From Candidatus Poseidoniaceae archaeon (GTDB lineage Archaea; Thermoplasmatota; Poseidoniia; Poseidoniales; Poseidoniaceae): a stretch of DNA of 60,332 nt. Made by a program: the position numbers and the translations under genes. Below, in pieces: positions 40,419-43,369 of the stretch. The stretch lies in NCBI GenBank assembly GCA_049606035.1, contig JBMYVD010000006.1, positions 1 to 60,332 of the forward strand, written 5' to 3'. Under the pieces are notes generated by a model. The model was not told where the DNA came from and made no database searches. It was given only the letters and a program-made list of their open reading frames with translations. Within the stretch, counting starts at the first letter, position 1. Every line of letters begins with the position of its first letter.

Positions 40419-41354
40419 TTACTCAGATTCATCAATAGTTTTTGATTTATTGTAGTAATCTGCAGCAAATCCTGCTGGAAGGATAACTGTCCACCACTTT
40501 GGTCTTTTGAAATCCCTCTGTTCGGTAACAAATGAGCGAACAAACATCGATAGTAGATCAATCACAACAACCACGACAAATACCACAATCAAGAGAGCAA
40601 AGGCTTTGTCATACGCAAATGGTGGGTTGATGTAATTGTCAATGTACATTCCAATTCCACCCGCACCGACCAAACCAAGCACGGTTCCATGCCTTACATT
40701 GTACTCGAACATAAACATCAGTTGGCTTAGTAAGTCATTACTCGCTTCCGGTATTACTACGTGAACTAAGCGCTCTGTATGTGTCAATCCCATCGCCATT
40801 GCTGATTCCAATGGAGCATTAGCAATACCTTCCATAGATTCATATTGCAACTTGCCTAGATAACCAACAGTGTACAGCGTCATCGCTAGTATTCCTGGCA
40901 GCGGACCGAAACCCAGAGCAATCGCAAATAGCAGTGCCCAGATTATGCTAGGAAGACTTCTCAGCCCTGCAAGGAGAACTCTAGCCGGTATTGCAACGGG
41001 AAGTGGTACCAAGTTATTTGCAGAGATAGAGGCTAGCGGAACTGAAATTATGAATCCGATTAGAGTTGATATGAATGCCATTTTTATTGTGATAACCATA
41101 CCTGTCCATGCTTTTGAACAGAATAGTTCGTATTTCTCCGTGCATAATTCGCCATCTGGTTTGTGTAGTGTGCCATCTGCCCATTCTTCAGCTTCTAAAA
41201 CAGACCAATCAGGGGGCCATAGATCTTCGTAAAAGAACGTCTCCAGCCTATCCGGTGCATCACCGATTTGGCCCCAATCATCAACTAAATCATCAAGAAA
41301 TGAAAAAGAAAGCCAAACTAATACCAAGGAGGTAATTATGAATTTTTTATTCAC
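40419..41354 (-). CDS. PhnE/PtxC-type ABC permease
   Basis: LRSLP, GFGPLPG, EAA-like ESAMAMG, FEYNVR..TVLGLVGAGGIG; GTGA overlap with the ATPase stop. Confidence 0.9.
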   Translation of the reverse strand: MNKKFIITSLVLVWLSFSFLDDLVDDWGQIGDAPDRLETFFYEDLWPPDWSVLEAEEWADGTLHKPDGELCTEKYELFCSKAWTGMVITIKMAFISTLIGFIISVPLASISANNLVPLPVAIPARVLLAGLRSLPSIIWALLFAIALGFGPLPGILAMTLYTVGYLGKLQYESMEGIANAPLESAMAMGLTHTERLVHVVIPEASNDLLSQLMFMFEYNVRHGTVLGLVGAGGIGMYIDNYINPPFAYDKAFALLIVVFVVVVVIDLLSMFVRSFVTEQRDFKRPKWWTVILPAGFAADYYNKSKTIDESE

Positions 41355-42061
41355 TTTACCATCTCCTCGATTACCTTTCCATCTACTATTCGCCAAATTT
41401 TGTCTGCAATTTCAATGGCCCTTTCTTCATGATGTTCAACCATGATTAATGTTGCACCAATATCCGAAACTAGGCTTTTAGTAGCCTCAATTATAGAATC
41501 TACATTTTCCTTATCTAACTCACCGAGGAACTCATCAGCAAGAATCAATTTTGGCCTTTGAACAAGCGCTCTAGCAATAGCAACTCTTCTCTGCTGTCCA
41601 CCAGATAAAATCCTCACAGGGTTATTGGAGAACACTTCGATGCCTAGAGAAGTTAGTGCTGAGTCAACGTCTGAGTTAAGATCGCTTCCTAGGGGAAGAA
41701 TTGCTGGATACCATCTTGGTTTCCTGGTTCTTGCACCGATAGCGACGTTACTCCTCACTGTCGAGTGCTTTACTAAACCAAGCCTCTGTGGAATGTAACC
41801 AATCCCGCTCCTTTTTGGAAAATCATGGATAACCTCTCCTGATAATGGAACGATTAGCCCTGCAATAGTCCTCAGGAGAGTAGTCTTTCCAATGCCAGAT
41901 GGACCTAGAATTGCTATGGTTTCACCCGGTTGTATTCTAAGGCTGATATCTGAGATTAGTGCCTCGTCATAGCCAACAGACAAGTTTCGTAATTCGAGAG
42001 CACAGGATTGGAAACTATGTTCCGAGTCTTCGCTTTTTGCGGGGGATTCTTCGTTAGCCAC
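41351..42061 (-). CDS. PhnC-type ABC ATP-binding subunit
   Basis: GPSGIGKT, LSGGQQRRVAIAR and LILADE; GTG at 42061 with a GGGGA SD (track start 42106). Confidence 0.9.
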   Translation of the reverse strand: MANEESPAKSEDSEHSFQSCALELRNLSVGYDEALISDISLRIQPGETIAILGPSGIGKTTLLRTIAGLIVPLSGEVIHDFPKRSGIGYIPQRLGLVKHSTVRSNVAIGARTRKPRWYPAILPLGSDLNSDVDSALTSLGIEVFSNNPVRILSGGQQRRVAIARALVQRPKLILADEFLGELDKENVDSIIEATKSLVSDIGATLIMVEHHEERAIEIADKIWRIVDGKVIEEMVK

Positions 42062-42109
42062 GTAATCTTCCCCCTTTGGTGTTACAGAATATTTCTTTGA
42101 ATACACAGG

Positions 42110-43306
42110 TCATTCCTGAACGGGTGATTCAGCCTCAGTAATTCCGTATTTTTCTGAAGAGTGATAGTATTCAGATAGTCCAGGAATTGCGCCAAGTAAG
42201 TCTGAATAACTTCCCAAGTGATCTTGACTATTACCTTCAACTAACTTGTATCCCTTTGAGGTAACTGAGGAAATGATTTCTCCACCACATTGATTTGCGG
42301 GCATTTCACTGACTTGGTGAGAGACTAAGTTGTAACATCCAGTGAAGGTTTCATTCCCAACTTGGTAACTTTCAACCCACATTTCATCACCCCAACTCAA
42401 CATAGCTTCTTGAATTGCAGCACTCATTTCTTCTCCTAGGTTTTCAGAATTATACATCACTGGGTGGCTTGGCGATTGGCCAAATGCTGGAAGTTGAATA
42501 TATTCAGTAATGTCCAAACACCACTCCTCATTGTCTGCTGCATCTGCATTGTCACAATACTTGTGAGGTGTACTGAAATCGTCACCCTTTGCAAATGCGA
42601 CATCTCCGTAACCTGAACTAAGGCATTCCAATGCTCCACTGTACCCTGAATAAAGTGCTCCTGAATCCGGTATAGAGGCAGCGTTGCCGTTGCTAGTGGA
42701 ACCATCGAAGTGGCTGTCGATCGTATTTCTTAGTGAATTGATATCTGACGTATCGCCTACTGGAGTAACGTAGCCGTTCTTGATTAGATAACCCATTGGC
42801 ATTAGCATACCTGCGGACTTTAACCACCCAGTATGGCATGATGTCTTCCCCTGTAGGAGAGCGAAAGGATCTGTTGATTCGTTTCCATCCAAATGCGCCT
42901 CAGCAATATCCGAACCGTTCAATACCCACGCCGAGGCATTGTAATGAGTTGCTCCTGCAGAGGTTGTAGTTTCAACTGCTAATACTGAAAGACCGTACTC
43001 TTGCCATCCTATCCATGCTGGACCACCCTCAAGGAAACCGATATCGGCATTTCCAAATCGCAGGGCTTGAATTATCATTCCCTCAGATGAAACGTCGTAC
43101 AGATTTACCTTCACTCCTAGGTCTGAGGATAATCTGTCTGCCATACCTTGTGCCTGTGCATTTGACTCTGAATCATCTGCCAAATAATACGCAATCGTGA
43201 TTACTTGTTCTTCTGAAGTATCCTCTCCACTGGCTCCAATACAGCCTGCTAATGATGCTGTAAGAATCAGGAATACTACCAGAGATTCTTTCGCATTAAC
43301 ACACAT
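42110..43306 (-). CDS. Lipoprotein substrate-binding protein, single-lobe transferrin-like (PhnD superfamily), probable Fe3+ binder
   Basis: Lipobox SLAGC22; transferrin signatures THYNASAWV, GKTSCHTGWLKSAG, YSGYSGALECL..GYGDVAF and QSPSHPV. Confidence 0.85.
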   Translation of the reverse strand: MCVNAKESLVVFLILTASLAGCIGASGEDTSEEQVITIAYYLADDSESNAQAQGMADRLSSDLGVKVNLYDVSSEGMIIQALRFGNADIGFLEGGPAWIGWQEYGLSVLAVETTTSAGATHYNASAWVLNGSDIAEAHLDGNESTDPFALLQGKTSCHTGWLKSAGMLMPMGYLIKNGYVTPVGDTSDINSLRNTIDSHFDGSTSNGNAASIPDSGALYSGYSGALECLSSGYGDVAFAKGDDFSTPHKYCDNADAADNEEWCLDITEYIQLPAFGQSPSHPVMYNSENLGEEMSAAIQEAMLSWGDEMWVESYQVGNETFTGCYNLVSHQVSEMPANQCGGEIISSVTSKGYKLVEGNSQDHLGSYSDLLGAIPGLSEYYHSSEKYGITEAESPVQE

Positions 43307-43318
43307 AGTAGCACCTGA

Positions 43319-43334
43319 TTTAGGTTGCCCGAAA
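43319..43334. promoter_or_regulatory. DtxR/MntR-type operator, proximal (TTTAGG-TTGC-CCGAAA)
   Basis: Near-palindrome with 1 mismatch, 13-28 bp upstream of the transferrin-like ATG. Confidence 0.65.
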
Positions 43335-43342
43335 AGAGTAGA

Positions 43343-43351
43343 GTATATATT
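43343..43351 (-). promoter_or_regulatory. Probable TATA box (AATATATAC) of the ABC operon
   Basis: Alternating TA run about 40 bp upstream of ATG 43306, between the two operators. Confidence 0.55.
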
Positions 43352-43369
43352 TTTTAGGCTGCCCTAAAA
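43352..43369. promoter_or_regulatory. DtxR/MntR-type operator, distal (TTTTAGG-CTGC-CCTAAAA)
   Basis: Perfect 7-4-7 inverted repeat with TTAGG-N4-CCTAA core. Confidence 0.72.

Follow-up and report, generated by a model that had tools for sequence, protein, structure and literature searches.

In a 60,332-nt stretch of DNA from a Candidatus Poseidoniaceae archaeon (contig C6, accession JBMYVD010000006.1, of assembly GCA_049606035.1; hereafter the window, with positions on the forward strand), three co-directional open reading frames (ORFs) on the minus strand, at 40419-43306, encode a substrate-binding protein (SBP), an ABC ATPase and a PhnE-type permease. We consider it fairly probable that this operon carries out iron-repressed capture of Fe(III), together with an anion, by a lipid-anchored homologue of transferrin that feeds a PhnCE-type ABC importer. 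The argument is built on the genes themselves, the family membership of each protein, conserved residues in the SBP and a conserved operator, all of which are observed. As a first-pass annotation of this DNA had proposed, protein motifs and cis-regulation provide two independent lines that point to iron: a set of metal ligands kept across the SBP family, and order-wide boxes that match the operator of the archaeal regulator TroR. The assembly (G000) comprises 1.74 Mb in 109 contigs, with an estimated completeness of 83%.

The binding protein and its operon

The SBP begins with a signal peptide that ends in a lipobox-like L-A-G-C motif (Cys22) and, at the level of sequence, it is a member of the transferrin family. 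It matches Pfam Transferrin (PF00405) with an E-value of 8.7e-17 and 61.7 bits (cut-off 20.3) over model positions 15-259 of 328. When it was compared with all PDB sequences, lactoferrin was the best match (E 2.9e-19) and the best 60 of 97 matches were all transferrin-family proteins (lactoferrin, transferrin, melanotransferrin and inhibitor of carbonic anhydrase), which bears out the transferrin motifs first noticed in the protein. An alignment of 32 family members (A1), used as a family profile, likewise found lactoferrin (1.1e-38), and the best 60 of 104 chains were transferrins, lactoferrins or melanotransferrin; all 32 members match PF00405 at E ≤0.001. In a Foldseek search with the AlphaFold model of the SBP (mean pLDDT 78.8), transferrin lobes ranked first (E 2.5e-13, 20-24% identity).

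The SBP also passes Pfam Phosphonate-bd (PF12974; E 2.4e-15, 57 bits, cut-off 27), and a scan that had been proposed to set the one family against the other therefore came out positive for both. Because each of the two Pfam families matches all A1 members, the SBP family sits, by sequence, between Transferrin and Phosphonate-bd, with transferrins as its closest solved relatives. The curated NCBI models for phosphonate SBPs were not reached (27.1 versus 261.1 for TIGR03431, PhnD; 41.3 versus 112.05 for TIGR01098). Escherichia coli K-12 PhnD aligns with the SBP only over residues 31-91 (E 6e-5), and hhalign gave a probability of 69% over 79 columns, the shared part being the N-terminal 64-79 residues. 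At E-values up to 1, neither Pfam nor NCBIfam gave the SBP a match to an FbpA-type family.

Aligning the SBP to bovine lactoferrin, as found in the PDB sequence search, gave the following correspondence of residues:

lactoferrin Asp60: Glu93 in the SBP
lactoferrin Tyr92: Tyr122 in the SBP
lactoferrin Thr117: Thr159 in the SBP
lactoferrin Arg121: Lys163 in the SBP
lactoferrin Ala123-Gly124: Ala165-Gly166 in the SBP
lactoferrin Tyr192: Tyr222 in the SBP
lactoferrin His253: His281 in the SBP

In lactoferrin, we take Asp60, Tyr92, Tyr192 and His253 to be the Fe(III) ligands, and Thr117, Arg121 and the helix N-terminus to form the carbonate or anion site. The putative iron ligands of the SBP are thus Glu93, Tyr122, Tyr222 and His281, and its putative anion site consists of Thr159, Lys163 and Ala165-Gly166; all four Fe(III)-ligand positions of transferrins are kept, with Glu93 a conservative replacement for Asp. 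The motifs CHTG, SAG, YSGA..CL..GDVAF.K and PSH are common to the SBP family and the eukaryotic transferrins. We assessed conservation of the site at six positions in 149 relatives aligned by phmmer (120 database proteins and 29 from genome loci; rows of at least 250 residues). Among 130 first or single lobes these positions hold Asp in 111 and Glu in 17, Tyr in 129, Thr in 129, Lys in 127, Tyr in 125 and His in 124. Among 63 second lobes they hold Asp (41), Asn (12) or Glu (6); Tyr (47) or Ser (11); Thr (50) or Ser (11); Lys (46) or Asp (14); Tyr (47) or Asp (11); and His (46) or Asp (11). Read as a signature, the site is DYTKYH in 62 single-lobed relatives and EYTKYH in 19, and 37 bilobal relatives have DYTKYH in both lobes. 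Ten of the 61 bilobal relatives combine an intact first lobe with NSSDDD in the second, all six positions having been lost jointly. Since the six positions are lost jointly and retained jointly, they behave as would be expected of one functional site.

The SBP consists of one lobe, and 61 of the 147 relatives with at least one long row are bilobal. Compared with a bilobal protein from the same genus, residues 33-398 of the SBP show 83% identity to the second lobe (367-732) and 49% to the first, and the signal peptides of the SBP and its near relatives are alike. Because of this 83% identity, the SBP looks like a bilobal form that has lost its first lobe, so that the monolobal transferrin of the first-pass annotation is indeed a single lobe, but would be monolobal only secondarily. 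The bilobal relatives are ~700-750 aa long and carry two transferrin-type lobes in a single frame (for example at loci L006 (G066:C22), L007, L009-L012 and L015-L023); at loci L015 and L017-L020, a single in-frame TGA stands in the read-through of the SBP match.

Of 151 genomes sampled in the order Poseidoniales, 133 have the SBP family. At the level of the phylum, PF00405 was found in 61 of 301 sampled genomes, mostly of this order with a few in other families, and it was found in 0 of 14 control genomes. The best 120 of 682 database relatives all carry PF00405, and 118 of these also carry PF12974. Relatives bear source names that range from 'PhnD/SsuA/transferrin family substrate-binding protein' to 'melanoma-associated antigen p97', some being named phosphate or phosphonate SBPs in public sources. 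The ESM Atlas holds 24 related clusters with both Pfam families, of which the four listed are 75-100% Archaea (Thermoplasmatota), and some clusters are automatically named 'Transferrin-like domain-containing protein'. As these source and cluster names show, automatic annotation had already caught the transferrin likeness. In the literature searched, which did not extend to the original phytotransferrin phylogeny, the comparative archaeal DtxR regulon study or supplementary files, we found no description of an archaeal transferrin and, as had been supposed, no functional description of such an operon.

The operon comprises the following genes:

42110..43306, minus strand: SBP, 398 aa (ORF list, Pfam, PDB, family profile, AlphaFold/Foldseek)
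41351..42106, minus strand: ABC ATPase, 251 aa as listed, with the true start possibly further in (PF00005, PhnC model)
40419..41396, minus strand: PhnE-type ABC permease, 325 aa as listed, TTG start (TIGR01097, PF00528)

The ATPase start overlaps the SBP stop by 4 nt and the TTG start of the permease overlaps the end of the ATPase gene. At the loci of relatives the order SBP-ATPase-permease is kept, with the ATPase adjoining the SBP in 30 of 30 and the permease downstream in 28 of 30; the two loci in which no permease was matched (L011 and L023) are among the shortest of the 30. Together with the ORFs and the lipobox, this conserved order upholds the description of a three-gene minus-strand operon for a lipoprotein SBP, an ATPase and a PhnE-type permease. 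The permease scores 218.9 bits against the PhnE equivalog model TIGR01097, just above the cut-off of 216.7, and 45.5 bits against PF00528 (BPD_transp_1). The ATPase (PF00005, ABC_tran, 107.9 bits) had been called PhnC type; PhnC (TIGR02315) is its nearest NCBIfam model, at 134.1 bits, below the cut-off of 266.1 and nearly tied with WtpC and PotA.

Operator boxes, regulator and a putative second target

Two boxes that had been seen in the SBP promoter flank a putative TATA box. The promoter features, with scores from a position weight matrix (PWM) for the boxes, are as follows:

43387-43389, minus strand: stop codon of the upstream gene (sequence reading)
43353..43368, minus strand: operator box 1, TTTAGGGCAGCCTAAA, directly upstream of the TATA box; PWM 25.4 bits
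43354-43367: 14-mer core of box 1, TTAGGGCAGCCTAA (sequence reading)
43343..43352, minus strand: putative archaeal TATA box, AAATATATAC
43319..43334, minus strand: operator box 2, TTTCGGGCAACCTAAA, ~13 nt before the ATG; PWM 22.4 bits
43320-43333: 14-mer core of box 2, TTAGGTTGCCCGAA (sequence reading)
43315-43312, minus strand: GGTG between box 2 and the ATG (sequence reading)
43306, minus strand: ATG of the SBP gene (sequence reading)

Along the minus strand the order is therefore upstream stop codon, box 1, TATA-like element, box 2, GGTG and ATG, and box 2 is expected to lie over the transcription start, the position of which is itself predicted. The window contains TTAGGNNNNCCKAA at 3 distinct sites, where 0.07 would be expected (100 shuffles), and genome-wide the bare 14-mer has 4 sites where ~1.9 would be expected. 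As this last count is weak when taken alone, the case for an operator is carried by the PWM and by the comparison of orthologues. Two further 14-mer sites were set aside. One, at C18:10734, scores below 12 bits with the PWM; the other, an exact TTAGGTTGACCTAA at 24057-24070, is probably a chance occurrence, as it lies inside a MobA-like nucleotidyltransferase gene, has flanks that misfit the 16-mer and also scores below 12 bits. The MobA-like gene adjoins an XdhC-like gene.

To compare orthologues, we searched upstream of the SBP gene in 30 loci for the 16-mer with up to two mismatches. Of these, 26 have one box or more and 22 have two or more; of the four that lack a box, contig ends truncate two, and in the other two the start codon was set too far upstream, a box being visible at the edge of the sequence. 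The synteny that had been proposed as a check is complete for the ATPase and extends to most loci for the permease (28) and the paired boxes (22). Box 1 and box 2 are 34 bp apart here, measured from start to start, and 33-34 bp apart in 18 of the 22 loci with at least two boxes. Most orthologous promoters have a T/A-rich, TATATA-like element between both boxes, and at one locus the perfect palindrome TTTAGGGCGCCCTAAA is present twice.

We then built the PWM from 48 boxes of other genomes only and scanned this genome with it. Three sites scored at least 20 bits, namely the two boxes of the SBP promoter and a site at C1:49968 (20.7 bits), and the next best scored 14.3; at a threshold of 12 bits there were six sites, while shuffled genomes had 7-9. 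Searches for the exact 16-mer in five near-complete genomes gave 1-3 sites each, all but one of them just before the SBP gene, and the exception (G044:C4:224230) has the sequence that stands ahead of ferredoxin genes in its genus. With at most one mismatch the 16-mer occurs 2-3 times in these genomes, compared with 6-14 times per strand for a reversed control pattern. Contigs assembled from four RNA runs of one study match portions of the SBP and permease genes at 95-99%. DNA may have been included in these assemblies, which indicate neither start nor strand nor level, and two of the contigs cross the promoter into the upstream gene; they are uninformative on regulation.

A study of Haloferax volcanii (PMC10783522) describes how TroR, a DtxR-family protein and the primary iron regulator, binds TTTAGGC-NNN-CCTAAAANAN by ChIP-seq and how two TroR sites ~30 bp apart around the TATA box repress a siderophore operon in iron, as established by reporter mutagenesis. 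The same study gives TTTwGAnnnnTCwAAA as the motif of the manganese-linked paralogue SirR, and a high-confidence TroR regulon of 26 genes with 206 motif instances genome-wide. For actinobacterial IdeR, a 14-bp consensus for one dimer, TTAGGNNNNCCTAA, has been proposed (PMC8464063). The SBP boxes fit the TroR and IdeR operators in sequence, length, tandem spacing and position, and as sequences they are unlike the SirR motif.

This genome has a single DtxR-family gene (C1:54313-54972; PF01325 67.6 bits, PF02742 68 bits). Aligned to Mycobacterium tuberculosis IdeR, its product has Glu12, Cys104, Glu107 and His108 at the primary-site positions Met10, Cys102, Glu105 and His106. We infer both that this protein binds the SBP boxes and which metal it senses. 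The third strong PWM site, at C1:49968-49983 (locus L003 ~5969-5984), starts 79 nt before the ATG of a gene for a 91-aa FdxA-like 4Fe-4S ferredoxin, which is followed by pdxS. Orthologues of this ferredoxin gene have a box of at least 15 bits in 10 of 30 loci of the family, 68-80 nt from the ATG and upstream of a TATA-like element; the 10 include all seven ferredoxin loci with a TTTCGG-type box at 68 nt, and several further loci score 11-14 bits. In many genomes some 5-6 kb separate the ferredoxin gene from the DtxR-family gene. That the sole other target is an iron-sulfur protein agrees better with an iron regulon than with one for manganese or phosphorus, though the signal is partial.

Proposed mechanism and alternative substrates

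In the mechanism that we propose, the SBP, lipid-anchored at the surface, would close on Fe(III) by means of a histidine, a pair of tyrosinates and the carboxylate of Glu93 (in most relatives, of Asp). Thr159, Lys163 and a helix N-terminus would hold a synergistic anion, which by analogy would be carbonate, though phosphate is possible. Both the ligand and the synergistic anion we infer by analogy. The loaded SBP would dock on a homodimeric PhnE-type permease, and the ATPase would power import of the iron. When iron is sufficient, the single DtxR-family regulator would occupy both boxes, bracketing the TATA box and covering the transcription start, and the promoter would be shut. At the ferredoxin gene, where the box lies upstream of the promoter, the same regulator may adjust the production of an iron-costly protein.

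Genes elsewhere in the genomes bear on the substrate. The first-pass annotation had noted the lack of C-P lyase and other phosphonate catabolism genes in the window, and in our searches for C-P lyase and phosphonatase, which did not include PhnW, PhnA, PhnY/PhnZ or the phosphite dehydrogenase PtxD, this lack extended to the order: none of 101 genomes had PhnJ, and none had PhnX above its cut-off (22 had weak HAD-type matches), this genome included in both cases. The genome has phosphate transporters of its own, a member of the PiT family (375 bits) and a PstS-type protein (80.7 bits); a Na/Pi cotransporter was not found in it. Among iron transporters, a convincing FeoB was found in 1 of the 101 genomes (203.5 bits, 668-aa frame). 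FeoB_N exceeds its Pfam cut-off in all 101, but all the listed matches except one score 37-49 bits in frames of ~260-640 aa, and at these scores we took them to be other GTPases. FecCD permeases are above cut-off in 11 of the 101 genomes, this one not among them, and no true FeoB, FecCD, NRAMP or ZIP was found in this genome, as far as its 83% completeness allows. A ZnuA/TroA-type metal binding protein is encoded at C17:9841-12198, in an 837-aa open frame in which the two halves of the Pfam match are ~1.5 kb apart, which points to either an extended N-terminus or a very long insert; on contig C17 the PWM scan found no operator box of at least 12 bits.

Several points weigh against the proposed mechanism. 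In the SBP, as in 127 of 130 first or single lobes, the Arg of the anion site is replaced by Lys, a trait of the family, so that carbonate is only one possible synergistic anion. PhnD shares the regions that contain Tyr122 and Thr159, and these two residues therefore do not by themselves separate iron from phosphonate. The match of PF12974 to the A1 members reaches a best E-value of 3.1e-38, compared with 4.1e-24 for PF00405, and the phosphite binder PtxB is close in fold (Foldseek rank 26, E 3.3e-12, TM 0.74 by target length). The permease is, by sequence, of a type known for anionic phosphonates, and we know of no PhnE-type permease that carries iron. On the side of regulation, the DtxR-family protein has Glu12 at the position of IdeR Met10, although it keeps Cys104; its best solved relatives have Asp or Glu where iron sensors have Met and Cys; and its best NCBIfam model is of MntR type (96.2 bits, cut-off 350), with actinobacterial DtxR at 56.9. 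The regulator family PF02742 is present in 149 of 151 genomes of the order, including genomes without the SBP, and we set aside its co-occurrence with the operon as non-discriminating. The ferredoxin-promoter signal reaches 15 bits in only a third of the loci. Finally, the transporter absences are provisional and no proof, given the completeness of the genome, in which a ZnuA-type system is present.

That the operon is a phosphonate, phosphite or phosphate importer, as annotated, with an SBP that merely shares ancestry with transferrins, seems to us improbable. Consistent with such a role, all 32 family members match PF12974, the permease passes the PhnE equivalog model, PtxB is a good structural match and relatives have been named phosphate or phosphonate SBPs; moreover, Tully 2019 (PMC6336850) describes transport of phosphonates as a core trait of Marine Group II. 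Yet the SBP falls far short of both curated phosphonate SBP models and its likeness to E. coli PhnD is confined to the N-terminal region, while a carboxylate, the second Tyr and His stand at transferrin metal positions where they would have no evident role in anion binding. Moreover, a search of the 101 genomes that left aside phosphite dehydrogenase and PhnY/PhnZ turned up neither C-P lyase nor phosphonatase, a metal-regulator operator stands in the promoter, and the genome has separate phosphate transporters. We give about as little credence to another metal, manganese or some other hard cation, under an Mn-sensing regulator of DtxR/MntR type. The leading MntR model of the regulator, the Asp or Glu that its top PDB relatives have where manganese and iron sensors differ, and its own Glu at the position of IdeR Met10, would suit this explanation, and transferrins bind other tri- and tetravalent metals (complexes with Al, Ti, Bi, Cr and Yb are among the PDB titles). 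Nonetheless, the regulator keeps the primary-site Cys and its MntR score is far below the cut-off, the second target is an iron-sulfur ferredoxin, and a pair of tyrosinates gives a site a preference for Fe(III) over Mn(II). The operator, moreover, matches the iron-linked TroR motif and not that of the manganese-linked SirR of the same organism (PMC10783522).

Still less probable, in our view, is a system in which the SBP binds iron but imports an iron chelate or an iron-phosphate or iron-phosphonate complex, or holds iron at the surface for another route. Conservation of the tight SBP-ATPase-permease operon in 28-30 of 30 loci is what a single import system normally shows, and the site resembles those that bind free Fe(III) with an anion and not those of chelate binders. 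Some features would nevertheless accommodate it: this type of permease is known only for anionic organophosphorus substrates, given the Lys of the anion site and the PhnD ancestry, the synergistic ligand could be a phosphorus oxyanion, and second lobes without a site, which persist in 10 of 61 bilobal forms, may have other roles.

Returning to capture of Fe(III) with an anion, a broader reading joins these observations, and we advance it only tentatively. The family would represent a prokaryotic stage of transferrin evolution, in which a PhnD-type SBP exchanged phosphonate for Fe(III) plus an anion while remaining on a PhnCE importer, with an independent duplication of the lobe; the operon would be the main and perhaps the only high-affinity iron route of these archaea, and the phosphonate trait a misannotation. 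Marine Group II archaea are among the most abundant archaea and heterotrophs of the sunlit, iron-poor surface ocean. Few genomes of the order have the iron routes usual in prokaryotes (FeoB, in our own reading, in 1 of 101 genomes and FecCD in 11), the operon is found in 133 of 151 genomes, and it is essentially the sole strong target of the conserved metal operator. If the operon carries iron, the iron uptake system of Marine Group II archaea would have been named, and there would be a complete transferrin-type metal site in an ABC setting outside eukaryotes, making the origin of transferrins testable with cloned proteins. The permease would be the first of PhnE type, to our knowledge, to serve a metal, and the core trait published as phosphonate transport (PMC6336850) would stand corrected. 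Should the prokaryotic-stage reading be true and the anion be carbonate, archaeal iron supply would be tied to seawater carbonate chemistry, as has been reported for diatom phytotransferrin.

The genes around the operon are as follows:

43387-44190, minus strand: 267-aa predicted membrane protein without a Pfam or NCBIfam family, directly upstream of the operon promoter
44265-47851, plus strand: ABC ATPase and ABC-2 permease pair plus a 633-aa secreted protein, divergent from the gene for the 267-aa protein
40051-40416, plus strand: DCC1-like thiol-disulfide oxidoreductase gene, convergent with the end of the permease gene

The 267-aa protein is placed in the same way in at least 14 of the 30 orthologous loci, with identities of 29-89%, and its ESM Atlas relatives are archaeal 'hypothetical protein' clusters only; it could be an accessory of the transporter system or merely a conserved neighbour. 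The 633-aa secreted protein has a hydrophobic C-terminal anchor and no Pfam family.

Comparison with known systems

Eukaryotic transferrins (serotransferrin, lactoferrin, ovotransferrin and melanotransferrin) are homologous to the SBP in sequence and share its type II binding fold, as well as the same ligand positions, Asp or Glu, Tyr, Tyr and His, together with Thr. In both groups monolobal and bilobal forms occur and some second lobes have no site; the second lobe of melanotransferrin is likewise without one. In contrast to the eukaryotic proteins, the SBP is archaeal and lipobox-anchored, has Lys for the anion-binding Arg, also passes Phosphonate-bd and has an extra C-terminal region of ~100 residues. 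Moreover, eukaryotic transferrins act through receptor-mediated endocytosis, whereas the SBP is encoded in an operon with an ABC ATPase and a permease. Diatom phytotransferrin ISIP2a, which works by endocytosis in eukaryotes, is a reported functional analogue that we liken to the SBP by description only.

Among importers, PhnCDE has the same gene content (one SBP, one ATPase and one permease); the PhnE model is just passed here, the ATPase is nearest to PhnC, and the SBP passes PF12974 and is like PtxB in fold, PtxB and HtxB being the phosphite and hypophosphite binders of such systems. The operon differs from PhnCDE in an SBP that fails both curated phosphonate SBP models and resembles E. coli PhnD at its N-terminus only, in an operator of metal and not of Pho type, and in the lack of PhnJ, and of PhnX above its cut-off, in the 101 genomes of the order. 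The TroR regulon (PMC10783522) has the same operator, TTTAGGC-NNN-CCTAAA, in tandem copies spaced by ~30 bp around the TATA box of an operon for iron uptake, but it comprises 26 genes, whereas the regulon predicted here is tiny (the SBP operon, plus the ferredoxin gene in some lineages).

In FbpABC systems, FbpA, known as the 'bacterial transferrin', hands Fe(III) to an ABC importer from a Tyr, Tyr, His and carboxylate site with a synergistic anion. The principle proposed for the SBP operon would be the same as in FbpABC/FutABC: such a site, a synergistic anion and an iron-responsive repressor. The SBP, however, lies outside the FbpA family, the permease is a single one of PhnE type and not FbpB, and the regulator is of DtxR/TroR type and not Fur, so that the operon would work like the FbpA/FutA systems without being a member of them. 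What would be new is a transferrin-family protein as the SBP of an ABC importer, alongside a PhnE-type permease and under a TroR-type operator.

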